Source of the DNA: a virus
Length of the DNA: 64,000 nt
Direction: 5' to 3' (one strand)
Virus record (IMG/VR): IMGVR_UViG_3300047472_000237
Location: 1-64,000 of that record
Every line of letters starts with the position of its first letter. The first letter of the stretch is position 1. The notes beneath the pieces were generated by a model. The model saw only the letters and a list, made by a program, of their open reading frames with translations, made no database searches and had not been told where the DNA came from. The translations under genes were made by a program, and so were the position numbers. Below, in pieces: positions 9,541-59,827 of the stretch.

Positions 9541-9843
9541 AGAGAAGTATAGGAGTTCGGTGTTTAAGAACCCCTCCCCGTCCCCCTTCCTACCACATAC
9601 CCCCTACCCTCGCGAATTGCGGCTGCCCTCCTGGGCGAGAGCAACCGCCCCAAACCGTCTCGAAACTCTGCATTCACCAGGGATTGCGCCTGCTCAGCCA
9701 CCCCCGGTCGGCTCTGAGTCAAAACGGCCGGCTGAGTCAGATCCAGGCCGCGCCAGCCTCCACCAGGGTCAATTCCGCAGAAAATCGATCCCCCAGCGTG
9801 AAAGTGGCTTGCCTTTGCGTAGCAGCCGGAGAGAATCAGGGCC

Positions 9844-14008: not shown

Positions 14009-14448
14009 GCCGAGGAGAACCACCCCGTCCTGAGTTCGTCAGTCACGTGCTTGAGGTGGCATACACGACCGGCGCAGTGCTCGTGGAAGCATTCGTCTGT
14101 CCGGCTTGCCATCTCCGGCAATTGTCGTGCCATCTTTGGTGCGAAACCCTGAGTTGCCGTGATCCACAATGCTCGGGACGTCTCCCGAGTAAGGTGTCAC
14201 GGCCGCCTCAGCCAGGTGAGGTCTCGCTGGAGTCCCTGGAGCTCGCGATGAAGACGCTTCGCGAGACATACGAGAACCAACAGCGCGTGGAACTCCCACC
14301 GCTAACGGCTGAGGAAGTCGCTGTGCTTCCTGTGGACGTGAAGTTGCTGCTTGCACGGCAGTCGGTCGCTGCTTCCCAGCATGTGCTGGTCAAAGCGGCG
14401 GCCTTGTCCGAAGAAATGGTGAAACTTCATGCCCCACACGAATCGTAA
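14005..14448 (+). CDS. Cys-rich (Zn-finger-like) hypothetical protein
   Basis: GTGA overlap with the upstream stop; CPAC...CRDPQC. Confidence 0.55.
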   Translation: MSRGEPPRPEFVSHVLEVAYTTGAVLVEAFVCPACHLRQLSCHLWCETLSCRDPQCSGRLPSKVSRPPQPGEVSLESLELAMKTLRETYENQQRVELPPLTAEEVAVLPVDVKLLLARQSVAASQHVLVKAAALSEEMVKLHAPHES

Positions 14449-18682: not shown

Positions 18683-19477
18683 ATGGAGTTCGATTTCGCC
18701 AAGAACACGTCGGTCACCGACGTGAACACGATCCCCTCCGATTTCCGCGGTCTCTACAAACAGGACGGCGACAAGTACGTTCTGGACAACGAGCACGTGG
18801 GCGTCAAGAGCGCCGTGTCCGCGATCACCGGCCTGAACAACGCACTCCGCGCCGCCCGCGCCGAGGCGAAGAACAAGACCACCGGCCCCGACCTCACGCC
18901 GCTGAAGGAATGGGGCGACACCCCCGAGGCCATCCTCGCGAAGTTCAACGAAACCAAGACCGGCCTGGAAGGGCAGATCAAGGGCGTGAACATCGAGAAG
19001 ATCAAGGAAGACCTCGCCAAGGAACACAGCGGCACCCACACCAAGCTCACCAAGCGCGCCGAGGCCCTCCAAGGCCAGCTGCACAAGCTGCTCGTGTCCG
19101 GCGAGGCGACCACCGCCATCAGCGGACTCAAGGGCGACGTCGAACTGCTCATGCCGTTTGTCGCTCAGCAGGTCAAGGTCGCCGAGAGCAAGGACGGCGA
19201 GTTCCTCGTGCACGTCGTCGACCAGGCCGGCGACATCCGCTACAGCGGCGTGACCGGCGCTCCCATGAGCATCAAGGAGCTCGTGGCTGAGATGAAGGCC
19301 AACGAACGCTACGGCAAGCTGTTCGCCAGCGAAGCCGCCAACGGTGGTGGTGCCGACGCGGGTGCGTCGAACAAGGCCCCGAACGCCGCGCAGCGCCAGG
19401 CCGCCGCCAAGGGTGACATGTCCGCCATGGACAAGATCCGTGCCGGTCTCACCAAGAAGGGCAATCTCTCCTCGTAA
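18683..19477 (+). CDS. Capsid scaffolding protein
   Basis: Coiled-coil protein immediately before the capsid gene; C-terminal 'MSAMDKIRAGL' as in YuA-like scaffolds. Confidence 0.8.
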   Translation: MEFDFAKNTSVTDVNTIPSDFRGLYKQDGDKYVLDNEHVGVKSAVSAITGLNNALRAARAEAKNKTTGPDLTPLKEWGDTPEAILAKFNETKTGLEGQIKGVNIEKIKEDLAKEHSGTHTKLTKRAEALQGQLHKLLVSGEATTAISGLKGDVELLMPFVAQQVKVAESKDGEFLVHVVDQAGDIRYSGVTGAPMSIKELVAEMKANERYGKLFASEAANGGGADAGASNKAPNAAQRQAAAKGDMSAMDKIRAGLTKKGNLSS

Positions 19478-19505
19478 ACACGAGACGAGATCCCGGTTCC
19501 AAGAA

Positions 19506-19551
19506 AAATCACCCCCGGCACTTGTAAGTGCCGGGGGTGATTTGCTATCGT
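19506..19551 (+). promoter_or_regulatory. 18-bp inverted repeat overlapping the capsid promoter
   Basis: AAATCACCCCCGGCACTT-gt-AAGTGCCGGGGGTGATTT; TTGTAA-18-TATCGT with extended -10 TG. Confidence 0.65.
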
Positions 19552-19677
19552 TCACCGATTCACCTGACGACGATGTGTCGACAGGCAAAGATGCAGCCCT
19601 CAGGGTGATCCTGTTCGGGGCGGCGAAGAAGCTGCAACCGAACACACATTCGCCCCAGAAGGGCGGGAGAAGAAGCA

Positions 19678-41320: not shown

Positions 41321-42295
41321 ATGCGCCAACTATTCAACCCACGAGTCGCGTTCAAGCCGTTCGAGTACCCGGAGGTCACCGGGTATCGCGACGCGATCAA
41401 CCATTCCTTCTGGCTCGTCTCGGAATGGAACTTCATCGCGGACCAGGGAGACTTCTCCCAGATGACACCGCTCGAACGCCGCGCGATCCGCAACACGCTG
41501 CTGGCAATCTCGCAGATCGAAGTGTCTGTCAAGAAGTTCTGGGCTCAGTTGGGCGGCCGCATTCCCAAGGCCGAGTTCGACCAGGTCGGCATCACGTTCG
41601 GCGAGTCAGAAGTCCGCCACGCTGAAGCCTACAGCCACCTGCTGACCGTCCTGCACCTCAACGAAGACTTCGAGCAGATCCTGGAAGTCCCCGCCATTCG
41701 CGGCCGGGTGGACTACCTCGCCAAGTTCATGAAAGGTGCGAGCGCCTGCTCCGACCAGGAGTACGCCCTGACGCTGACGCTGTTCTCGTCCTTCATCGAG
41801 AACGTGTCGCTCTTCGCTCAGTTCGTCATCATCAAATCCTTCAACAAGCACCGCCAGGTGTTGAAGGACATCGACAATGTCGTATCGGCCACGCAGAAGG
41901 AAGAGCTCATCCACGCCGCCTTCGGCCAGTACGTCGTCAACACAATCCGTAGCGAGAACCCCGGATGGTTCGGAACGGATTTCTACATCCGGCTCGAGGA
42001 AGCCGCTCACGCCGCGTACAAGGCGGAACGTGCTATCCTCGACTGGATCTTCGAGGCCGGCGAGCTCCCATGGCTCAGCAAGGCCGCCCTCGACCAGTTC
42101 ATCCGTCAGCGGCTCAACGAGAGCCTGACGGCAGTCGGAGCGGACACGATCTTCGTCGTCGACCAGGCCCTCCTGGGCGAACTCACGTGGTTCTACGAAG
42201 AGCTCCACGCTGGCATCAGCGTCGACTTCTTCCACGTCCGCTCCGTTGACTATTCCAAGAAACAGCAGGCCGTGCAGGCAGGAGACTTGTTCTGA
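41321..42295 (+). CDS. nrdB: Ribonucleotide reductase class Ia beta subunit
   Basis: 'KPFEYP', 'ESEVRHAEAY', 'FIENVSLF', 'EELIH' di-metal ligands and radical Tyr. Confidence 0.93.
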   Translation: MRQLFNPRVAFKPFEYPEVTGYRDAINHSFWLVSEWNFIADQGDFSQMTPLERRAIRNTLLAISQIEVSVKKFWAQLGGRIPKAEFDQVGITFGESEVRHAEAYSHLLTVLHLNEDFEQILEVPAIRGRVDYLAKFMKGASACSDQEYALTLTLFSSFIENVSLFAQFVIIKSFNKHRQVLKDIDNVVSATQKEELIHAAFGQYVVNTIRSENPGWFGTDFYIRLEEAAHAAYKAERAILDWIFEAGELPWLSKAALDQFIRQRLNESLTAVGADTIFVVDQALLGELTWFYEELHAGISVDFFHVRSVDYSKKQQAVQAGDLF

Positions 42296-43938
42296 TGTCG
42301 TACCGATGGCTCACACCCGAATCACAGACGTTTCTCGAACGCGACTACCTCATGCCGGGGCAGACCGTGGACGAGCGGATCGATATCATCTGCAACCGCG
42401 CGGAGGAGCTCCTGCAACGCCCAGGGCACGCGGCTCGGCTGAAGGAGTGTCTCCAGAAAGGGTGGATCACCCTCGCCTCGCCCATCCTGACCAACTTCGG
42501 CACCAGCCGGGGTCTGCCCATCAGCTGCTTCGGCAGCAGCATCGAAGACTCCATGGAGTCGATCGTCCGGACGCACGCTGAGGTGTGCATCATGACGAAG
42601 CACGGCGGCGGCACGAGCGGCTACTTCGGCAAGCTGCGTGGTCGTAATGTGCCGATCAAGGACAACGGCGTCTCGAGCGGCTCCGTCCACTTCATGCAGC
42701 TGTTCAACACGGCGATCAACGTCGTGTCCCAGGGCACCACCCGGCGCGGCCAGTTTGCCGCGTACCAGGACATCGAGCACCCCGACGTCGAAGAGTTCCT
42801 CAAGATCCGCTCGGATGGCAACAAGATCCAGGACATCCTGTTCGGGGTCTGCGTCAGCGATGCGTTCATGGAGCGGATGATCGACAACAACGGGCCGGAG
42901 CGGGTGCTGTGGGCGAAGGTGCTCCAGAGCCGCGCGGCCATCGGTCTGCCCTACATCTTCTTCACCGACAACGCCAACCGCCAGGCCCCCGACTGCTATC
43001 GCAACGAGGGGATGAAGATCACCCACTCGAACCTGTGCACCGAGATCATGCTCCCCGACTGCGACGAAGAGTCGTTCGTCTGCGATCTCTCGAGCATGGT
43101 CGATCTGTACTACGACGAGTGGAAGGACACGCACGCGGTCGAGACGCTGGCGTACACCCTGGAAGCCGTGATGACCGAGTTCATCATGAAGGGCCAGCAT
43201 GTGCCGTACCTCGAACGCGCCGTGCGGTTTGCCCGCCGCCACCGTGCCCTGGGCATTGGCCGCGTCGGCTGGCACAGCTACCTCCAGAGCCTCATGCTCC
43301 CGTTCGAGGGCCTGACCGCCCGACTGCTGAACGCGGAGATCTCCGCCACGATCCAGCGGCAGGCTCTGGCCGCGTCGAAGGCTATGGCTGTGACCTACGG
43401 CGAGCCTGAGGTGCTGAAAGGCTACGGCCGCCGCAACGCCACGCTCATCGCCATCGCCCCGACCAAGTCGACCGCGTTCATCTTCGGTCAGCTGTCCGAG
43501 GGCATCGAGCCGTGGACGACCAACTATCAGGTCTCGAAGCTCCAGAAGGGCAGCTTCCCCATCCGCAACCGCTTCCTCCAGAAGCTGCTCGCCGCCAAGG
43601 GCAAAGACACCGAAGAGACCTGGAAGAGCATCCTGGAGCACAGCGGCTCCGTGCAGCACTTCGACTTCCTCGACAAGGAAGAGAAGGCTGTGTTCAAGAC
43701 CTTCGTCGAGATCTCGCCGCTTGAGGTCGTTGAACAGGCGGCCGGCCGGCAACGCTTCATCGACCAGGGCCAGTCCACCAACCTCATGATCCAGCCGTCG
43801 ATCCCGATCAAGGACGTGAACGCGCTCCTGATCACGGCCTGGCGGAAGGGTCTCAAATCGCTCTACTATCAGAAGAGCGTGAACGCCGCACAGGAGTTCG
43901 CCCGCAACATCATGCACTGTGCCGCCTGCGAAGGCTGA
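42295..43938 (+). CDS. nrdA: Ribonucleotide reductase class Ia alpha subunit (short, no ATP cone)
   Basis: 'PISCF', 'SNLCTEI', 'IAPT', 'DQGQS', 'SLYY', C-terminal CAACEG. Confidence 0.95.
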   Translation: MSYRWLTPESQTFLERDYLMPGQTVDERIDIICNRAEELLQRPGHAARLKECLQKGWITLASPILTNFGTSRGLPISCFGSSIEDSMESIVRTHAEVCIMTKHGGGTSGYFGKLRGRNVPIKDNGVSSGSVHFMQLFNTAINVVSQGTTRRGQFAAYQDIEHPDVEEFLKIRSDGNKIQDILFGVCVSDAFMERMIDNNGPERVLWAKVLQSRAAIGLPYIFFTDNANRQAPDCYRNEGMKITHSNLCTEIMLPDCDEESFVCDLSSMVDLYYDEWKDTHAVETLAYTLEAVMTEFIMKGQHVPYLERAVRFARRHRALGIGRVGWHSYLQSLMLPFEGLTARLLNAEISATIQRQALAASKAMAVTYGEPEVLKGYGRRNATLIAIAPTKSTAFIFGQLSEGIEPWTTNYQVSKLQKGSFPIRNRFLQKLLAAKGKDTEETWKSILEHSGSVQHFDFLDKEEKAVFKTFVEISPLEVVEQAAGRQRFIDQGQSTNLMIQPSIPIKDVNALLITAWRKGLKSLYYQKSVNAAQEFARNIMHCAACEG

Positions 43939-43963: not shown

Positions 43964-44000
43964 ACGCCCTGGGCCAGCAGCCCAGGGCGTTTCGCATTTT
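43964..44000 (+). terminator. Intrinsic terminator
   Basis: ACGCCCTGGGC-cagca-GCCCAGGGCGT then ttcgcatttt. Confidence 0.75.
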
Positions 44001-44092
44001 GCGATGAATCAGCTTGCTTTCCGGGATAAGTGCGGGCATGATACATCCCGTCGCCGAAAGGCATTAACCCTTCTCTATCTGAGGAACTGTCC

Positions 44093-44788
44093 ATGAACGT
44101 GCCGTACACTTCGAACGCGCTCGGCTTGACCATCAAGTCCGCTGACGACATCAAGACCCTCGAGCCCAAGCAGATGCTCTCGCTCCACAACGAGATCTCG
44201 AACGCCTCCGTCAAGCGGTTCGCCGACAAGAAGAGCGGCGTCAAGCGCACGGTCGAAGCGTTCCAGACCTGGCAAGGCCAGCAGACCGAGAAGACGCCCA
44301 AGCTGGTCACCGCCGACCACAAGTCCTTCCGCAAGGACAGTGCCCGTGGCAAGGTCATCGCCGCTGCCTCGAAGGCCGGCGGTGCGACCCGCGCCCAGCT
44401 GAAGGAGATCTCCGGCTGGGACGACACGAACCTGACGGCGGCCCTGAGCCGCGTCGAGTCGTACAACGGCCTGACCGTGACCCGCACCGGCGAAGGCGAC
44501 GAGCAGATCATCGTCATCACCGGCGTCCTCCGCACCCGCAAGGCGTTCGCCTTCGACCCGCTCCCCGAGAAGCAGCGTCGAGCACACAAGGAGAGCGGCA
44601 CGCCGACCAAGCGCTCCAAGGTCGTCGCCATGCTCACCGCCAAGGGCGGGGCCTCGTTCGAGGAGATCCAGGCGGCCACCGACTGGAACGACCGCGACGC
44701 GTACGAAGGCATCCGTCTCATCCACAGCTATCTTGGATATGGCCTGAAAGAGACGGGCGAAGGCAAGATCATCGCTTTCCGCGCGTAA
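44093..44788 (+). CDS. DNA-binding protein with tandem DUF3489-like winged-helix repeats
   Basis: GAGGA RBS; two 'KV..m....GGA(T/S)..(Q/E)l...t.W' repeats. Confidence 0.7.
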   Translation: MNVPYTSNALGLTIKSADDIKTLEPKQMLSLHNEISNASVKRFADKKSGVKRTVEAFQTWQGQQTEKTPKLVTADHKSFRKDSARGKVIAAASKAGGATRAQLKEISGWDDTNLTAALSRVESYNGLTVTRTGEGDEQIIVITGVLRTRKAFAFDPLPEKQRRAHKESGTPTKRSKVVAMLTAKGGASFEEIQAATDWNDRDAYEGIRLIHSYLGYGLKETGEGKIIAFRA

Positions 44789-44793
44789 TTCGC

Positions 44794-44821
44794 TTGCTAC
44801 TGCCGCCAAGTGCGGTAAACT
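44794..44821 (+). promoter_or_regulatory. Promoter for the structured RNA / modification cluster
   Basis: TTGCTA-16-TAAACT; expected +1 near 44828. Confidence 0.65.
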
Positions 44822-44827
44822 GAAGTC

Positions 44828-45137
44828 GTCCTGATTGAGGCAGTCGGCCGCCCCGCTCACCCCGAGGGCGAAGACTGCAAAAATCAAAGTCGAGCAACGC
44901 CACAGAGGAGCTCCGGCTCCTCCAACCTGAGTCGCTTGCGGGTCTTCGGCCCCGTGAAGCGATGGCCCGTAAACGGTCGGGTCTGTAACCAGGCATCGGT
45001 TCTGGAATGTAAACCGCCAACAGACGACTTGTGCGTCAACCACTGGCGGAGCATGAAGGAATCGCGCGGCGGGTGAGTGCACCACTGCAAGATTTCGGGG
45101 GATGAACAACGTCGTTCGTCGACTGCCTCATCAGGAC
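44828..45137 (+). ncRNA. Unassigned ~310-nt structured RNA
   Basis: 5' GTCCTGAT-t-GAGGCAGTCG pairs with 3' CGACTGCCTC-ATCAGGAC; several internal hairpins; no credible ORF. Confidence 0.7.
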
Positions 45138-45156
45138 ACTTTTCTCGAAAGAACCT

Positions 45157-46017
45157 ATGGCCTCCCAGAACTATCCCCGCGTCACGATTGAAGACTTTGG
45201 CAAGCACCTGCTCGACGCGGGCGATCTGGATCCCATCTATCTCGGCCTCCACCGGCTGGCCCTCCCCGCGAATCAGCTTCATCGCTGGCTCCTGGCATAC
45301 TGTTGCTTCTACAGCGCCGGCGTCGCTTCGTACCTCTCTGAGTTCGAGGGTGCGACCTTCTGGGAACACTTCCTCACCGCTGCCAAGAACGAGACCCCGG
45401 CCCCGCATGGCGGACGTTGGGAGCGTGGCAAGGAACGTCGCCACTTCCGTGGCGGACAGGCCATCAAGGCCACCAACGAGCTCATCGGCAAGTACCCCGT
45501 CCCCGAACTCGCCTTCAACGGGCACCTGGTCCGCCCCGGCGAGACCCGCCTACCCTTCAGCGTGGTCAGCGACCGCGCTCAGGAGTGGCGAGGCTTCGGC
45601 ACCTGGATCTCCTTCAAGGTCGGCGACCTGCTCGACCGTGTCGGCATTATCCCCGTCGACTTCGCGTTTGACGAGGCGATGTACGAAGATCCGACCAAGG
45701 CCGCGATCATGCAGTGGAAGCTGCGGCGCGACCTGCCCCAGGACTCGACCATCGACGACCCGAAGGCCGCCGTGCAGGAGATCGTCGCGTACCTCATCGA
45801 GCACTTCAAGGACTATCTGGCCCCGCCGCTGCTCGACCGCCCCATCGGCCTCCAGGAGGTCGAGACGATCCTCTGCAAGTGGAAGTCGCACATCAACGGG
45901 CACTACCCGTTCTTCAACGACACGGTCGAGATCCACCACGGTGTCTCTCCCTGGGCCAACCACAGCGACACGGCCAAGCGGTTCCTCGCTGCCATGCCTC
46001 AGCCGCCGGCCAAGTAA
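45157..46017 (+). CDS. Amino acid:DNA transferase (aGPT-Pplase2 family)
   Basis: 'GDLDPIY...RWLLAYCCFY...RGKERRHFRG...GFGTWISFKVGDLLDR...QEVETILCKWKSHINGHY' as in the M6 gp51/PaMx11 gp46 type. Confidence 0.85.
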   Translation: MASQNYPRVTIEDFGKHLLDAGDLDPIYLGLHRLALPANQLHRWLLAYCCFYSAGVASYLSEFEGATFWEHFLTAAKNETPAPHGGRWERGKERRHFRGGQAIKATNELIGKYPVPELAFNGHLVRPGETRLPFSVVSDRAQEWRGFGTWISFKVGDLLDRVGIIPVDFAFDEAMYEDPTKAAIMQWKLRRDLPQDSTIDDPKAAVQEIVAYLIEHFKDYLAPPLLDRPIGLQEVETILCKWKSHINGHYPFFNDTVEIHHGVSPWANHSDTAKRFLAAMPQPPAK

Positions 46018-46056: not shown

Positions 46057-46890
46057 ATGAGCACAACAGTCAACATCATCGGGGCCGGGATCGCTGGCTC
46101 CATCACTTCAACCCTCCTCCGCACGGCAGGGTTCAACACGCGGGTCATCGACGACGCTGACAAGTTCTCCGCCAGCGCGGCGAGCTCCAACCTGTTCATC
46201 GTCGATTGGTACGACACCGACCTGAAGCAGATCGCTGACGGCTTCGACGTGCTCGAGATGCTCTACAAGGACGTGACGGAGTTCCCGTTCAAGGCCGGCA
46301 TCAAGATCGCACCCCGCATGCTGCACATCGGGCAGCGTCACCTGCTGGTCAAGCCGGACGTGATCGGCACTGTGACCTACGCCGACGAGCAGGGAGTCGC
46401 CCTGGGCGACATGCAGCACTTCGATGGCCCAGTGATCCTGGCGGCCGGCTACCGCGCCAACACGCTCATCCGCGACCACGCTCAGCACCACGACATCGAG
46501 GTCTACGCGGGCCACCGCTACCTGTTCAAGGGAGACCTGGCCGAGGGCCGCCTCGACATGGTCGCACCGTACAAGCACGGCAAGCTGTACCAGTACGCAC
46601 CGGGGCAGATCTACTACGCCGACAGCGTGAAGCTCCAGCTGAAGTCCTACAACAAGCGACAGGCCGAGATCCAGGAGCGGACGCTCGCTCGTGCCCAGGC
46701 GGCACTAGGTCGTACAGACCTCGAGATCATCGACTTCCGAGTGGGGTATCGCCCTGTCATCGCTGAGAAACCGCTTGGCGTACTCGACCGCATCAGCAAG
46801 AATGTGTGGAGTATGAACGGCGGCGGCAAGAACGGCACTGTCGCCTATGCCGGCCTCGCCCGGCAGCTTCTCGAGGAGCTCAGGGCCTGA
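46057..46890 (+). CDS. FAD-dependent oxidoreductase/lyase (PaMx11 gp47-like)
   Basis: 'IIGAGIAG' FAD motif, 'ASAAS', 'GYRP', 'GGGKNG'; adjacent to the amino acid:DNA transferase. Confidence 0.8.
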   Translation: MSTTVNIIGAGIAGSITSTLLRTAGFNTRVIDDADKFSASAASSNLFIVDWYDTDLKQIADGFDVLEMLYKDVTEFPFKAGIKIAPRMLHIGQRHLLVKPDVIGTVTYADEQGVALGDMQHFDGPVILAAGYRANTLIRDHAQHHDIEVYAGHRYLFKGDLAEGRLDMVAPYKHGKLYQYAPGQIYYADSVKLQLKSYNKRQAEIQERTLARAQAALGRTDLEIIDFRVGYRPVIAEKPLGVLDRISKNVWSMNGGGKNGTVAYAGLARQLLEELRA

Positions 46891-47177
46891 TGAGCAAGAA
46901 GGCCGGCAAACCTCTCCTGCCATTCTTCAAGTCGCTTCGCAAGCGCAAGAAGAAAGGGAAGAAGCGGACCATCGTAACTGACTGGGACTTGCCGCCGATC
47001 GTGGAGAAGACGAAGACCCTTGCCGATTGCTACGAAGAGGACTACAGTGACCGCAATGCAAATCCGCCCCGCCACCCCCGACGACCACAAACGCCTCTGC
47101 GAGATCGCCCGCTCACACCGCGCGGGGAACGGCTTCTCGAACATTCAAATGTTCAGCGGCCCGACCCACTACGCTAA
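46890..47177 (+). CDS. Basic hypothetical protein overlapping the GNAT gene
   Basis: TGATG coupling to the upstream stop; Lys-rich; last 122 nt overlap the next gene. Confidence 0.35.
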   Translation: MSKKAGKPLLPFFKSLRKRKKKGKKRTIVTDWDLPPIVEKTKTLADCYEEDYSDRNANPPRHPRRPQTPLRDRPLTPRGERLLEHSNVQRPDPLR

Positions 47178-47505
47178 CGGCTGGCTGCGTGTGATGGTCG
47201 ACGCCGAAGGCAAGATCGTCGCCTTCACCTGCATTCGTCAGAAGAAGACGACGAAGCAGACGAAGCTCTACTACATCATCGTGGACACGGCGTACCGCTC
47301 CGGCGGCATCGTCGACAACAAGCCGGTCGTCGGCATCGGCCAGGCGCTCCTGGATGACCTGATCACCAACTCCCCGTATCGCGAGCTCATCTGCGACTGC
47401 CTGAAGGACAATGAGCCGGCTCTGAAGTTCTACAAGAAGAACGGCTTCGAGATCGTGGGTGAGTCCCTCAAGGGCAAGGGACACATCCTCCTGAAGAAGT
47501 GGTGA
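47056..47505 (+). CDS. GNAT acetyltransferase (PaMx11 gp48-like)
   Basis: 'IRPATPDD', 'GIGQALL', 'NEPALKFYKKNGF'; TTGCCG(47020)-17-TACAGT-7 nt-ATG. Confidence 0.88.
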   Translation: MQIRPATPDDHKRLCEIARSHRAGNGFSNIQMFSGPTHYANGWLRVMVDAEGKIVAFTCIRQKKTTKQTKLYYIIVDTAYRSGGIVDNKPVVGIGQALLDDLITNSPYRELICDCLKDNEPALKFYKKNGFEIVGESLKGKGHILLKKW

Positions 47506-47721
47506 GCACGGAGTGAACTTGTCGGGCCAAACCTCGTGCACGGCCTGCTTGCCTTAAATGCTGCCGCCCGGTCGAGGTCGGGAGAGGCGAATCCAGGTGC
47601 TCACCACTCTTGAGGGAACTATGGACACCATCATCGTCGCTCATCATGTCGCACACTTCAGCTGTGCACTACTTACTCTCTTGTGCATCGCCTACGTCGC
47701 GAAGCCGAAGGACCGTTCCCA

Positions 47722-48375
47722 ATGCGTAACCCGACCATCGTCAATATCCGTGGCACGAGCGGCTCTGGCAAGAGCACTCTGGTCAAGGCGATATTCGCCC
47801 GCTGCACCAATGTCGAGCCAGTGCGGGCACCTTCCACCGCGAAGCGCAAGCAGCCGCTCGGCTACACGATGCAATACAACTCGCTCGGCGCGGAGAACAA
47901 CCCGCAGAAGCTGTTCATCGCCGGCCACTACGAATCAGCCTGCGGCGGCTGCGACACGTTGGGGAAGTACCTTCCCGATGTCGTCACTCCTCGTCTGATC
48001 GGCGACGACACCGAGCCGAACAGCTACCACTTGACCTTCGGCCTGGTGCGTGAGTACTGGCGGCGCGGCTACAACGTCGTGTTCGAGGGCCTGCTCATCA
48101 GCGGCGACGTGCGGCACACCAAGGCCCTCCACGACGACGCCCTCCCCATCAACGTGGTCGGCTTCGACCTGCCCGTGGACTTCTGCATCGCGTCCGTCCT
48201 CGAGCGGCGGAAGGCCGCTGGCAACGTCAAGGAGTTCAACGAGGCCAACACGCGGGACAAGCACCGCCTCCTCGTGAACTGCCTCTCGAAGCTCGACGTG
48301 GCGGGCGTGCCCGTACAACGCTGCGGCACTCGAGAGCTCGCCTCGGACGCGGTCTACGCCCTCCTGGGCATGTAA
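47722..48375 (+). CDS. 5-hydroxymethyluracil DNA kinase (P-loop)
   Basis: 'NIRGTSGSGKST', 'GHYESACGGCDT', 'VFEGLL', 'CIASVLERR' as in the M6 gp54 type. Confidence 0.85.
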   Translation: MRNPTIVNIRGTSGSGKSTLVKAIFARCTNVEPVRAPSTAKRKQPLGYTMQYNSLGAENNPQKLFIAGHYESACGGCDTLGKYLPDVVTPRLIGDDTEPNSYHLTFGLVREYWRRGYNVVFEGLLISGDVRHTKALHDDALPINVVGFDLPVDFCIASVLERRKAAGNVKEFNEANTRDKHRLLVNCLSKLDVAGVPVQRCGTRELASDAVYALLGM

Positions 48376-50816: not shown

Positions 50817-50891
50817 TGACGCGATGGTCCAGATGGTAGGGCCGTGGGCTCATAACCCGCTGCATCGAAGGTTCGACTCCTTCCGCGTCAG
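50817..50891 (+). tRNA. tRNA with CAT anticodon (initiator-Met-like, slightly atypical)
   Basis: TGACGCG/CGCGTCA acceptor, GTCC/GGGC D stem, GTGGG-CTCATAA-CCCGC anticodon arm, GAAGG-TTCGACT-CCTTC T arm; no encoded CCA. Confidence 0.8.
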
Positions 50892-55707: not shown

Positions 55708-58101
55708 ATGTCGTCTGTTGCACCCAATTACGAAGCATCGATCGAGTTCCTGCGGCGGTTCCACCCGAACCGCAACTGGGTGCTGACGTCGATCTCCCTC
55801 GACAAGCGAAACATCTCGACGAAGACCTTCAACGAGGCCACGGCCGGCAAGTGCTTGGAATGGCTGAAGCTCGCTGGCTTCGAACGCAACATCTACTTCT
55901 CCGTTGGCGAAGTCGACAAGATCGTCGAGAAGAAGGCTGACCGCGAGGACATCAGCCGCGTTTGGTACCTCCACGTCGACATCGACCCCCGCGCGGGCGA
56001 GGACATCGAGTCAGAGCAGAAGCGGGCGTTGGCCCTCCTCCAGAACCCGCCCGGCCTCCAGGCCCCGACAGTCATCACGTTCTCCGGCGGCGGCTACCAA
56101 GCCTTCTGGGCACTCCGTGAGCCGTTCGAAACGAAGAACACCCTGGAGCTCGCCGAAGAGGCGAAGCTGTACAACCTCCAGATCGAAATCGCCTTGGGCG
56201 CGGACAACGTCCACAACATCGACCGCATCATGCGGTTGCCGGGCACGCTGAACCGCCCCGACGCCCTCAAGGTCAAGAAGGGCCGCAAGCCGGCGCTGGC
56301 CCAGGTGGTCGAGTGGCACGAGGACCGAACGTACACGCTCGCTCAGTTCACGAAGGCCCCGCTGGTGCAGACCGGCGAAGCCGGCTTCATCGGAACGGCT
56401 GGCGGCACCAGCAAGCCGAAGGTCAAGGTCAGCGGCAACGTGCGTCGTATCGAGTCCGTGGACGAGCTCCCCGAGCAGGTCAGCGGGCGTGCCAAGGTCA
56501 TCATCTGCCAGGGCGTCGACCCCGACGAGCCGACCAAGTTCGCCGGCCGCAGCGAGTGGTTGTTCTATGTCTGCTGCGAGCTCGTTCGTGGCGGCTGTGA
56601 CGACGACACGATCTACTCGATCATCACCGATCCGAAGTTCGAGATCTCGAAGTCTGTGCTCGACAAGGGCAGCATGACCGAGAAGTATGCCCTCCGCCAG
56701 ATCGAACGGGCACGCGAGGACGCCCACGACCCTGACCTCCGCGCGATGAACGAGCAGTTTGCCGTCATCAGCAACTGGTCGGGCAAGTGCCGCGTCGTCG
56801 AAGAGCAGTTCGACGAGTCCATGGGTCGGTTCCGTCTGACCAAGCAGACGTTCGAGGACTTCCGCAACCGCCTGATGCACCGCAAGAAGACGGTGGGCCA
56901 GAACGTACGCGGCGAGGACATCACGCGCGGGATGGGCGAGTGGTGGCTACAGGAGTCTGGCCGCCGGCAGTTCGACAAGATCGTGTTCGCCCCCGGCAAG
57001 GATGTTCCCGGCAGCTACAACCTGTGGCGCGGCTTTGCGTGCGACGCCCGCCCCGGCGACTGCTCGCTGTTCCTGACCCACCTTCGCGAGAACATCTGCC
57101 AAGGCAATGAGGTCCACTACGACTACCTCATCAAGTGGATGGCTCGAGCCGTTCAGATGCCCGACAGCCCAGGGTACTCCAGCGTGGTGTTCCGTGGCGG
57201 CCAGGGCACTGGCAAGTCGTTCGTCGCCAAGACGCTCGGCTCGCTGTTCGGTCGCCACTTCATGCAGGTCACCGACCCGAAGCACCTGGTCGGCTCGTTC
57301 AACAGCCACTTGCGTGACTGCGTGTTCCTGTTCGGTGACGAGGCGTTCTACGCCGGCGACAAGAAGCACGAGTCAGTGCTCAAGATGCTGATCACGGAAG
57401 AGATGATCACGATCGAAGCCAAGGGCGTCGACGCGGAAGTGTCCGGCAACTGCATCCACCTGATGATGGCGTCGAACGACGCCTGGGTGGTGCCCGCCGG
57501 TATGGACGACCGCCGCTTCTTCGTGCTCGACGTCGGCATCAAGTCGAAGAACGACGCCTCATACTTCCAGGCGATCAACGACCAGCTGCGGGCCGGGGGC
57601 CGCGAGGCGCTCCTCCACCACCTGCTCACGCTCGACCTCAAGGGGTACGAAGTCCGCAACGTGCCGAAGACGGCCGCCCTCCAGCAGCAGAAGATGTTCA
57701 GCATGGGCAGCCAGGACGGCTGGTGGTTCGAGAAGCTACGCGACGGCCGGCTCCTCGCCGAGCACGGCGACTGGCGTCTCGAGGTTGTGGTCAACGACCT
57801 GCACCAGGACTTCCTCGACTACTGCCGCCAGTTCAACGTGGCACGGCGCGGCACTGCCTTCTCGCTCCGCCAGACGATCGAGGGTTTCCTGCCGAAGGGC
57901 CTCCTGGGCAAGTATCAGACGAACTCGCCCGTCGAGACCACCACGCCGTCGGGCGAGAAGAAGATGATCCCCCGCCCGTACTGGTATCGCATTCCGTCGC
58001 TGGAAGTCTGTCGCAAGCACTGGGACGAGAACTTCGGCGGCCCCTACGACTGGGAAAGTGTCGAGATGCGGAACGTACCGCAGACCCCGGAAGTCTTCTA
58101 A
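55708..58101 (+). CDS. Primase-helicase (RepB-like primase + SF3/DUF5906 helicase)
   Basis: 'HVDID', 'SGGGYQAFW', 'DRIMRLPGT'; 'GGQGTGKS', 'FGDE', 'MASN', 'DDRRFFV'. Confidence 0.9.
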   Translation: MSSVAPNYEASIEFLRRFHPNRNWVLTSISLDKRNISTKTFNEATAGKCLEWLKLAGFERNIYFSVGEVDKIVEKKADREDISRVWYLHVDIDPRAGEDIESEQKRALALLQNPPGLQAPTVITFSGGGYQAFWALREPFETKNTLELAEEAKLYNLQIEIALGADNVHNIDRIMRLPGTLNRPDALKVKKGRKPALAQVVEWHEDRTYTLAQFTKAPLVQTGEAGFIGTAGGTSKPKVKVSGNVRRIESVDELPEQVSGRAKVIICQGVDPDEPTKFAGRSEWLFYVCCELVRGGCDDDTIYSIITDPKFEISKSVLDKGSMTEKYALRQIERAREDAHDPDLRAMNEQFAVISNWSGKCRVVEEQFDESMGRFRLTKQTFEDFRNRLMHRKKTVGQNVRGEDITRGMGEWWLQESGRRQFDKIVFAPGKDVPGSYNLWRGFACDARPGDCSLFLTHLRENICQGNEVHYDYLIKWMARAVQMPDSPGYSSVVFRGGQGTGKSFVAKTLGSLFGRHFMQVTDPKHLVGSFNSHLRDCVFLFGDEAFYAGDKKHESVLKMLITEEMITIEAKGVDAEVSGNCIHLMMASNDAWVVPAGMDDRRFFVLDVGIKSKNDASYFQAINDQLRAGGREALLHHLLTLDLKGYEVRNVPKTAALQQQKMFSMGSQDGWWFEKLRDGRLLAEHGDWRLEVVVNDLHQDFLDYCRQFNVARRGTAFSLRQTIEGFLPKGLLGKYQTNSPVETTTPSGEKKMIPRPYWYRIPSLEVCRKHWDENFGGPYDWESVEMRNVPQTPEVF

Positions 58102-58108
58102 GGACAAC

Positions 58109-59827
58109 ATGTCACAACTACGATGGATCGTTGACGCCGAGAACTTGTCGGCACAGAACTGTTACGGCTCCAAGCTGGGAGTCCACCCGCTGGTCGGGCA
58201 GATGCTCGTGAACCGGGGCATCAACAACATCCCGGAGGCGTACAACTTCCTGAACCCGAACCTCAGAGATCTCCACGATCCGATGCTCATGCACGACATG
58301 CAGCGGGCCGTGCTCCGGATCCGCGAGGCGATCCTGAAGGGCGAGAAGATTGCCGTGTTCGGAGACTACGACGTCGACGGCGTGACGGCCAGCGCGACCA
58401 TGTTCCACGCCCTGACGTACTTCGGCGTGTCGCCCCGCATGTACATCCCCCACCGGCTCAACGAAGGCTACGGCATCAGCCCGCAAGCCATCGAGACCCT
58501 GGCGGCCGAAGGCGTCAAGCTGATCATCAGCGTCGACTGCGGCGTCACGGCCGTGGAGCCGGCGGCGAAGGCACACGAGCTCGGCGTCGACCTGGTCGTG
58601 ACCGACCACCACCAGTGGAAGGACGAGCTCCCGAAGTGCTACGCCATCGTCCACCCGCGCCTCGACAACAAGTACCCCAACCCAGAGCTCTGCGGAGCCG
58701 GCGTGGCCCACAAGGTCGCCTGGGCCTTGGGCAAGGCCATGGAGGGCTCAGAGCGGGTCGCTCCGGCGTACGGAGAGCTCCTACAACAGCTGCTGGCGTT
58801 TACCGCCCTCGGCACCATCGCAGACGTCGTACCGCTCATCGGCGAGAACCGGGTCATCGCCCACCACGGCCTGAAGCGGCTCCCTGAGAGCGTGTTCAAG
58901 GGCCTGCGGGCGCTCATCGTGTCGGCCGGCCTCGACGGCGCGGACATCGACGGCTACCACGTCGGATTCTGTCTGGCGCCACGTCTCAACGCAGCTGGCC
59001 GCCTGGGCCATGCCCTGACCGCCCTGAAGATGCTGACCACCGACACGTGGGAGGAAGCACTCGAGACGGGCAAGTATCTCGAGCAGGAGAACAAGGCACG
59101 ACAGGACACCGAGCGAGCAATCGTCAAGGAGGCGAAGGCCCAGGCGGAAGCAGAGTTCCCCGGCGCGACCGCGTTGGTGCTCACTGGCAAGGACTGGCAC
59201 AGCGGCGTCGTCGGCATCGTGGCCAGTCGCGTCATCGACGAGCGGTACTGCCCGACCATCGTGCTGGTCGACAGCGGCGACGAACTCCACGGCTCTTGCC
59301 GCAGCATCGAGGGGTTCAACCTGTACGACGCCCTGAAGGCATGCGAGCACCACCTCATCCGCTGGGGCGGTCACGCCATGGCGGCCGGCATCAAGCTGAA
59401 GGCAGAGAACCTCGACGCCTTCCGCAGCGAGCTCCAGGCGTACGTGACCGAGCACTGCCCGCCTGAGCTCCTCCAGCGGCGGCTCCTCATCGACGCGTGG
59501 GCGACCATCGACCAGCTGACCGAGAAGCTGATCGACGACATGAACAAGCTGGGGCCGTTCGGCCAGGCCAACCGCAAGGTCATGCTGGCACTGAAGGACG
59601 CGGTCATCGTCGAGTCCCGCGCGATCGGCAAGGAGGGCAAGCACCTCAGCCTGATGATCTCGCAGAAGGGTCGCAAGATCAAGGCCATTGCCTTCGGCCG
59701 GGGCGACGACGCACATCTGGTCCCCACGGACACGCGAGTCGACATTGCGGCCGAGCCGACTATCAACGAGTGGCGCGGCCGTCGTAACGTGGAATTATTG
59801 GTTCGAGACATCGTAGTGAGGGGATAA
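58109..59827 (+). CDS. recJ: ssDNA-specific 5'-3' exonuclease RecJ
   Basis: 'GDYDVDG', 'EGYG', 'VDCG', 'TDHH', 'LCGAGVA', 'GTIADVVPL', 'PRLNAAGR', 'GSCRS', 'GGHAMAAG', 'PFGQAN'. Confidence 0.95.
   Translation: MSQLRWIVDAENLSAQNCYGSKLGVHPLVGQMLVNRGINNIPEAYNFLNPNLRDLHDPMLMHDMQRAVLRIREAILKGEKIAVFGDYDVDGVTASATMFHALTYFGVSPRMYIPHRLNEGYGISPQAIETLAAEGVKLIISVDCGVTAVEPAAKAHELGVDLVVTDHHQWKDELPKCYAIVHPRLDNKYPNPELCGAGVAHKVAWALGKAMEGSERVAPAYGELLQQLLAFTALGTIADVVPLIGENRVIAHHGLKRLPESVFKGLRALIVSAGLDGADIDGYHVGFCLAPRLNAAGRLGHALTALKMLTTDTWEEALETGKYLEQENKARQDTERAIVKEAKAQAEAEFPGATALVLTGKDWHSGVVGIVASRVIDERYCPTIVLVDSGDELHGSCRSIEGFNLYDALKACEHHLIRWGGHAMAAGIKLKAENLDAFRSELQAYVTEHCPPELLQRRLLIDAWATIDQLTEKLIDDMNKLGPFGQANRKVMLALKDAVIVESRAIGKEGKHLSLMISQKGRKIKAIAFGRGDDAHLVPTDTRVDIAAEPTINEWRGRRNVELLVRDIVVRG

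Follow-up and report, generated by a model that had tools for sequence, protein, structure and literature searches.

Why should a phage operon for DNA hypermodification be preceded by 368 nt of DNA without a gene? The question is raised by IMG/VR record IMGVR_UViG_3300047472_000237, the genome of an uncultured rhizosphere phage (82,787 bases, 63% GC, rated complete by CheckV), whose first 64,000 nucleotides are analyzed here and referred to as the window. The gap occupies positions 44789-45156, between a gene for a DUF3489 protein and the gene for an amino acid:DNA transferase. The original prediction placed in it a structured RNA of about 310 nt with its own promoter, taken to be either a free phage non-coding RNA (ncRNA) of a new class or a large cis-regulatory leader. 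We find that the gap is non-coding and that it holds an orphan non-coding insert, closed by an inverted repeat, at the head of a PaMx11-type hypermodification operon. Our favored interpretation, the likeliest of four and one held at less than even confidence, is that the insert serves in cis as the 5′ leader of this operon. Of the two earlier alternatives, the cis leader fits better and the free ncRNA of a new class less well.

By a crude gene caller based on GC content at third codon positions (GC3), the gap is the largest between about 34.6 and 60.9 kb, the runner-up measuring 251 nt, in agreement with its earlier description as the only long gene-free gap in the replication half. The sequence features named in the original prediction all lie where it had located them. 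Its 18-bp closing stem with one bulge corresponds to an inverted repeat whose core, at 44828-44846 and 45120-45137, comprises 18 pairs and one bulged T and includes a perfect 11-nt match (44836-44846 with 45120-45130). ACTTTTCT follows the repeat, and the transferase ATG at 45157 stands 19 nt past the stem, as had been reported; GGAG, GAGG and AGGA are all absent from 45138-45156, before this ATG. The internal hairpins described earlier, two with UCCG and UUCG loops and one pairing CCGCCA with UGGCGG around GACG/CGUC, are likewise present in the sequence. The 18-mer of the repeat is not itself palindromic, and no further copy of it occurs in the window at up to three mismatches. The whole element measures 316-321 bp and has a GC content of 0.58, compared with 0.63 for the genome.

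Comparison with related loci indicates how the block arose. The spacer between the DUF3489 and transferase genes was measured in 40 of 134 loci, namely those with a same-strand DUF3489 homolog upstream of the transferase gene; it is at most 57 nt long in 23 of these, 104-189 nt in 6 and at least 485 nt in 11, counts that are not independent because some of the 40 are duplicate records of one phage. In Pseudomonas phage PaMx11, whose gp45 is homologous to the DUF3489 protein (BLASTP 2e-18), the spacer at this junction is 51 nt. In L128 (58% transferase identity), the nearest relative for which upstream DNA is available, the open reading frame (ORF) that abuts the transferase gene matches the DUF3489 protein (BLASTP 4e-14) and ends at the transferase ATG, leaving no spacer at all. 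Six long spacers were compared with the ORF list: three contain clear high-GC3 ORFs, one is ambiguous and two belong to low-GC loci in which GC3 cannot decide. The junction is a variable spot, and relatives carry extra genes there. Six other relatives (L003, L007, L008, L010, L011 and L021) have a spacer that reads stop codon, TTGCCT, hairpin, GAAAGGGAG, ATG. The window keeps this layout in its left 33 nt (stop codon, TTGCTA, small hairpin) and its right 14-19 nt (GAAAG...ATGGCC), and the block bounded by the inverted repeat sits exactly between these conserved ends. Given the minimal spacers of relatives and the preserved layout on both sides, the block of about 320 nt is a lineage-specific insert. 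An independent Logan assembly of the same run, which is a rhizosphere metagenome DNA run, the sole public run with matching DNA and probably the source of the record, covers 44300-45700 within a single contig of 82,648 bases and shows 0 differences and no variants; the insert is therefore not an assembly artifact. An origin by insertion is much better supported than either function, leader or free RNA. As a separate observation, the six relatives share a common layout of stop codon, GATTGCCTT, hairpin, CAGAAAGGGAG and ATGGC, in which the hairpin-bearing middle measures 55 nt at its shortest and 145 nt at its longest, which indicates that in their lineage, too, the spacer grows and shrinks.

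The gap shows no GC periodicity by codon position, while the flanking genes reach GC3 values of 0.85-0.95. Four translated frames of the gap gave no match in PHROG and only AWS in Pfam (E 0.19; 12.2 bits against a cut-off of 23.3). An 85-amino-acid frame on the + strand had no homolog among 5.8 billion proteins, and an 88-amino-acid frame on the − strand had 0 matches among 1.84 billion representatives. A small protein, for which ORFs of 46 and 31 amino acids and the 85-amino-acid open frame were considered, was rejected on weak GC3 bias and the lack of homologs.

Known RNA families do not account for the element either. We searched Rfam 15, whose 4227 models include riboswitches, RNase P, 6S RNA, transfer-messenger RNA (tmRNA), HEARO, hammerhead ribozymes and group I/II introns. 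At gathering score the only match in the whole window was a tRNA at 50818-50890, and at E ≤ 10 the region 44700-45250 returned only mir-73 (14 bits against 86) and an 18-nt CrcZ hairpin (7.9 bits against 95). The original prediction, which did not recognize the class and named a strong Rfam match as the result that would remove its novelty, thus came through at both settings. ARAGORN reported 0 tRNA or tmRNA genes in 44000-46000. A terminator scan of the same region called 0, by a definition (loop of 3-8 nt) that is blind to a long-range helix followed by ACUUUUCU. Three further candidates were discarded: a hammerhead ribozyme, for which CUGAUGAG occurs on the − strand while stems II and III fail by eye and Rfam gives nothing; a cobalamin or glycine riboswitch, for which no model matches; and a replication origin, the cumulative GC skew having no inflection near 45 kb.

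Relatives of the element were sought in viral, metagenome and candidate-host sequences. Against the loci around transferase homologs (80 viral loci, later 133), nhmmer and blastn of the gap gave nothing significant in either set, and tblastx against the 133 gave weak short matches only (best E 0.042). When the element was compared by BLAST with the complete records of 50 of these 80 viral loci, only chance matches of 14-31 nt appeared, and a 'distant' blastn search of 50,697 phage records yielded none. An IMG/VR locus search by single protein found no relative, and two interior patterns had 0 matches in IMG/VR; the sole IMG/VR match of the terminal-repeat pattern, L135, was dismissed after alignment showed unrelated coding DNA. 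A profile of the phage RecJ retrieved relatives of at most 43% identity from IMG/VR, which indicates that no close kin are present there. We also built a covariance model, R1, from the single sequence 44903-45066. In the phage's own genome R1 matches itself alone; in 100 of the 133 loci (L102-L134 left out) its best score was 12.7 bits (E 1.2), to a terminator-like hairpin in M6-like phages; and in 141 genomes of the candidate host order, Tepidisphaerales, it found one match at E 0.09. BLAST against 401 sampled Phycisphaerae genomes gave matches at E ≤ 0.01 in 10 genomes, all of them pieces of 23-38 nt, and the six that were inspected had no similarity outside the matched piece. In the main text of PMC8989533, which describes the PaMx11 pathway, 'intergenic' and 'non-coding' occur 0 times each. 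Since relatives are missing from everything searched, the element cannot yet be called a new RNA class. The choice of host order goes back to RecJ (58058-59827), which is 46-49% identical to Tepidisphaeraceae proteins and 47% identical to a protein of a Tepidisphaerales metagenome-assembled genome; phage-borne RecJ relatives reach 51-60%. A host in Phycisphaerae is thus a candidate suggested by RecJ similarity, a lead and not proof.

The fold of the gap is strand-biased. On the + strand its 368 nt give z −3.98, a stability matched by 0 of 100 shuffles, against z −2.08 on the − strand. The element (44822-45145) reaches z −5.79, below all 52 native 324-nt segments used as background (mean −1.15, sd 1.48, minimum −5.07). 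In a comparison among segments from the genome's gaps the + strand scores −4.75 and the − strand −2.17, and the region ranks second of 31, only 19478-19677 being lower. The 324-nt background and gap-segment folds were computed with DNA letters (T), shuffles being treated alike; ViennaRNA's special tetraloop bonuses were probably not applied to them, because their energies are about 2 kcal/mol weaker than in the other folds. The closing helix is predicted to contain 22 pairs and two bulges (44822-44845 with 45121-45142) at a mean pair probability of 0.95. Three single hairpins, two of them with UNCG-type loops, are modestly unusual relative to shuffles (z −3.75, −2.85 and −2.47), the segment 44926-44993 folds ambiguously (pair probabilities of about 0.2), and 11 of the 107 predicted pairs are G-U. 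Both of the competing long-range pairings put forward in the original prediction exist and exclude each other; neither has good support, and the pairing that enters the minimum-energy fold has a probability of 0.39. Elsewhere in the genome, the 420-nt gap 14009-14428 (crude gene list) folds with a comparable + bias (z −4.2 on + and −1.4 on −). The lowest z of all gap segments (−7.45) belongs to 19478-19677, which follows the gene at 18683-19477; its perfect 18-bp hairpin (19506-19543) lies between an A-run and a T-run and resembles a bidirectional terminator.

The promoter proposed for the element, TTGCTA-16-TAAACT, fits a motif family of this phage, TTGC[CT][CTA]-N15-18-NAN[AC][AC]T. Across the whole genome this family has 19 matches on the + strand and 2 on the − strand. 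The non-coding 16.6% of the genome, as delimited by the crude gene list, contains the starts of 12 of the 19 (binomial p 7e-6), a statistic that the post hoc choice of pattern inflates, the strand bias being less affected. Most of the other sites are found 7-101 nt ahead of a start codon; from the site at 44794 to the next gene the distance is 336 nt. Examples in the whole genome (G000) are found at 9809, 11297, 38418, 55265, 61511 and 65795. Several sites end 7-13 nt before the start codon and would give leaderless or near-leaderless messages, and GGAG, GAGG or AGGA occurs upstream of only 31 of 77 genes (crude gene list). At G000 65793-66256, TTGCTT-17-TAAACT at 65795, with the same −10 hexamer, precedes 434 nt without a called gene, where the fold z is only −2.2.

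If the site at 44794 fires, the transcript begins with the element. Lying between this site (44794-44821) and the transferase start codon, the module most likely forms the 5′ leader of the operon transcript. In this reading a non-coding module of about 320 nt (44822-45142), ending in inverted repeats of 18-22 bp, was inserted in this phage lineage into what is normally a very short spacer. In the RNA, its ends would pair into a helix of about 22 bp whose start coincides with the predicted +1 or lies a few bases from it. The RNA so enclosed, about 275 nt, would be structured to an ordinary degree, and the final 14 nt ahead of the AUG would stay free. Such a 5′-terminal helix may shield the operon mRNA from 5′-end-dependent decay. 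It may instead be a double-strand-specific (RNase III-type) processing site that would uncouple the modification genes from the nrd-DUF3489 message; an RNase III substrate takes about two turns of double-stranded RNA, to which the 22 pairs and two bulges of the predicted helix may be compared. The weak U-run after the helix, ACUUUUCU, may also cause partial termination. Should the leader reading be true, the phage would have rewired the expression of its DNA-hypermodification operon by means of a non-coding block placed in a spacer that is otherwise nearly absent. As a single orphan locus in an uncultured rhizosphere phage, the element is at present a lead and not a discovery.

Several observations weigh against a leader. 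Transcription of the block, along with its 5′ end, processing and effect on expression, is something we infer. The promoter-like site agrees with the sigma-70 consensus at 8 of 12 positions, a level reached by 41 + strand sites in 82.8 kb. It is not called by our scan, which requires at least 9 of 12 over two hexamers with 16-18 nt spacing and assumes a consensus that may not reflect the promoter rules of the host. The phage motif was composed only after its matches in gaps had been seen. An own promoter, as first claimed, is thus plausible by its fit to the phage family and short of the threshold by the sigma-70 scan. As to the fold, the claim that it exceeds shuffled controls stands for the full + strand and the element and does not extend to the interior: for 44847-45119 by itself z is −1.49 and 14 of 200 shuffles match its stability, which is ordinary for the genome. 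With the arms removed almost all of the excess vanishes, so the excess stability stems essentially from the closing helix, and the helix alone argues for selection at the RNA level. The richly structured RNA of the original prediction is not supported, the interior without its closing repeat being no more stable than is usual in this genome. End-to-end pairing of equal strength (−42.7 kcal/mol) was found at 126 of 27,482 sampled genome positions (about 0.5%), which makes it unusual, though not astronomically so. No homolog of the element was found in the viral, metagenome or candidate-host genomes searched, and consequently none of its base pairs draws support from comparison. The predicted fold does not sequester the ribosome-binding region and hence suggests no obvious switch; no riboswitch model matches either, and nothing speaks for ligand sensing. 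Many other gaps exceed 120 nt (crude gene list), which indicates that non-coding DNA is not strongly purged in this phage. Finally, the helix and ACUUUUCU could instead form the end of a free RNA.

That last possibility leads to the idea of a free, trans-acting phage ncRNA, or 'RNA moron', with a promoter at 44794, a start near 44828, its own ends paired and termination at the U-run near 45143. Its target would belong to the host or the phage, and it might serve as a decoy or scaffold, for instance. The promoter-like site stands directly upstream, the helix begins at the predicted +1, and ACUUUUCU comes after it. The ends of many stable RNAs pair with each other, the two UNCG-type loops (UCCG and UUCG) are relevant only in RNA, no Rfam family claims the sequence, and relatives carry extra genes at the same junction. 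Against it stand the ordinary interior, the lack of homologs that could show covariation, a short and interrupted U-run at which the scan calls no terminator, and the mere two antisense matches of at least 13 nt to the rest of the genome. In addition, only 14 nt separate the helix from the transferase AUG, so that the operon would lack its own promoter. We regard a free RNA as unlikely. Its most ambitious version, a stand-alone stable RNA gene of about 315 nt that has a promoter to itself and ends in the helix and U-run, acting in trans as the first of an undescribed phage RNA class, is more doubtful still. If true, it might be a decoy for a host nuclease or defense sensor or a scaffold for the modification enzymes, and the locus would gain in importance were the RNA proved free-standing. 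A rather different explanation is a selfish or inert insert, either an element resembling a miniature inverted-repeat transposable element (MITE) or the remnant of a decayed gene in a permissive spacer, with repeats that are transposition termini and an RNA hairpin that is a by-product. A discrete block with 18-22-bp inverted repeats where relatives have 0-57 nt is what such an insertion would leave, and the unremarkable interior and lower GC content (0.58 against 0.63) suit it as well; it explains the origin of the block as well as the leader reading does. The 316-321 bp size and the repeat length fall within the definition of a prokaryotic MITE, which asks for 50-800 bp and terminal repeats no shorter than 10-15 bp (PMC11602168). 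However, a search for target-site duplications of 2-10 bp produced nothing convincing: the flanks lack a direct repeat whether the core or the extended repeat is taken as the boundary, and an asymmetric choice of boundaries gives only a 3-nt ACT/ACT. The element is single-copy in the phage, its terminal-repeat pattern gave one unrelated IMG/VR match, and searches of 50 related virus records and 401 sampled Phycisphaerae genomes turned up no copy. Nor do the tblastx results (best E 0.042 against 133 loci) or the frames, with no significant Pfam, PHROG or protein match, reveal a decayed gene. Two of the three MITE criteria tested, target-site duplication and the presence of further copies or a parent insertion sequence, thus came out negative, and the reported share of viral sequences with MITEs is only 0.01% (PMC11602168). 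That the block belongs to the MITE class is not established, and we consider a selfish or inert insert possible but improbable.

A role for the DNA itself was also weighed: the repeats could be two inverted 18-bp operators separated by about 290 bp and recognized by a regulator, for example the adjacent DUF3489 protein, or the block could be a replication or recombination site. A unique 18-bp sequence does occur twice, inverted, beside a small-protein gene whose domain looks like a helix-turn-helix by eye, and the stability excess resides in the repeat and not in the interior. Yet folding favors the + strand over the −, G-U pairs and UNCG loops are meaningless in DNA, and neither iterons nor an AT-rich block are present. 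The missing GC skew inflection near 45 kb and an 18-mer that is neither palindromic nor found in a third copy also oppose such a site, which we regard as very improbable. We accordingly place the cis-acting leader first, the selfish or inert insert second, the free ncRNA third and the DNA-level site a distant last.

The position of the element within its neighborhood is summarized in Table 1. The gene order nrdB, nrdA, DUF3489 gene, transferase, FAD enzyme, GNAT acetyltransferase and kinase is that of Pseudomonas phage PaMx11 (nrdB, nrdA, gp45, gp46-gp49), in which gp46-gp49 make 5-acetylaminomethyl-dU (PMC8989533). By its gene content, the operon probably encodes a PaMx11-type 5-acetylaminomethyl-dU pathway. 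The original statement that the element heads a thymidine hypermodification cluster is borne out by this order and by the Pfam matches.

Table 1 Features of the element and its neighborhood (window coordinates)
Feature	Position	Strand	Remarks
Ribonucleotide reductase small subunit (nrdB)	41321-42295		Upstream of gap
Ribonucleotide reductase large subunit (nrdA)	42295-43938		Upstream of gap
DUF3489 protein gene, 231 amino acids	44093-44788	+	Pfam PF11994, E 4.7e-10
Promoter-like TTGCTA-16-TAAACT	44794-44821 (TTGCTA 44794-44799, TAAACT 44816-44821)	+	Begins 5 nt past upstream stop codon
Small hairpin in promoter-like spacer	44801-44806 / 44812-44817	+	Predicted fold of 368-nt gap
Closing helix, 5′ arm	44822-44846	+	Core inverted repeat 44828-44846, extended by GAAGU 44822-44826
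Interior of insert, 273 nt	44847-45119	+	
UCCG hairpin GAGGAGC-UCCG-GCUCCUC	44905-44922	+	Pair probability 1.00
UUCG hairpin	44931-44963	+	
Composite hairpin, CCGCCA/UGGCGG around GACG/CGUC	44997-45064	+	Pair probability 0.94-0.99
Hairpin	45101-45120	+	In interior
Closing helix, 3′ arm	45120-45142	+	Core inverted repeat 45120-45137, extended by ACUUU 45138-45142
U-rich tail ACUUUUCU, then unpaired run-up to transferase start codon	45138-45156	+	
Amino acid:DNA transferase gene (aGPT-Pplase2 type)	45157-46017	+	First of PaMx11-type cluster; Pfam PF18724, E 1.1e-21
FAD enzyme (oxidoreductase)	46057-46890		Downstream of transferase
GNAT acetyltransferase	47020-47505		Downstream of FAD enzyme
P-loop kinase	47683-48375		Downstream of GNAT

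Three side observations concern the surrounding genes and the record. The C-terminal domain of the DUF3489 protein seems to be doubled, residues 77-126 weakly resembling the PaMx11 gp45 segment that residues 161-218 match. The tRNA gene at 50818-50890 lies in the cluster alongside the GNAT gene (47020-47505), and the GNAT enzyme Mom of phage Mu was reported in 2026 to use Gly-tRNA(Gly) for DNA modification (PMC13219725); the possible substrate here is either acetyl-CoA, as in PaMx11, or a charged tRNA. A 29-nt promoter-like string occurs at both record ends (G000 62 and 82715), and the 82,648-base Logan contig is offset by about 3.5 kb from the IMG/VR record, which suggests terminal redundancy or a circularly permuted assembly.

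Several known systems share part of this arrangement. Riboswitch leaders (glycine, flavin mononucleotide (FMN), tetrahydrofolate (THF), S-adenosylmethionine (SAM), cobalamin and others in Rfam 15) likewise place a long leader with a P1-like closing helix before a metabolic or modification operon; the phage element differs in matching no aptamer model at E ≤ 10 and in leaving the start region unsequestered. The RNase III sites of the T7 early region and 5′ stem-loop stabilizers of the ompA-leader type are simple hairpins of a few dozen nucleotides. They likewise set a helix at the 5′ end or between cistrons, where it determines mRNA stability or separates the cistrons, whereas the helix of the phage element encloses about 275 nt and its processing is a proposal. 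Phage morons are modules of promoter, insert and terminator between conserved genes, and they encode proteins. The element resembles them as a lineage-specific insert at a variable junction, with a promoter-like site before it and a stem and U-run after it, and differs from them in lacking a credible ORF. Correia elements can create promoters at their ends, can bind RNase III, being cleaved or protected, and control adjacent genes (PMC2649163). Like the element described here, Correia elements and similar bacterial MITEs transcribed together with their neighboring genes are non-coding intergenic blocks with inverted repeats, which form a long hairpin when transcribed. The phage element is distinguished by being single-copy, with no target-site duplication and no relatives in the genomes searched; it is also about twice as long as a Correia element. 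Repeat-enclosed elements of the Correia type offer the closest described behavior, and if the leader reading is true, the insert would be a phage counterpart to these elements, which reshape bacterial transcripts.

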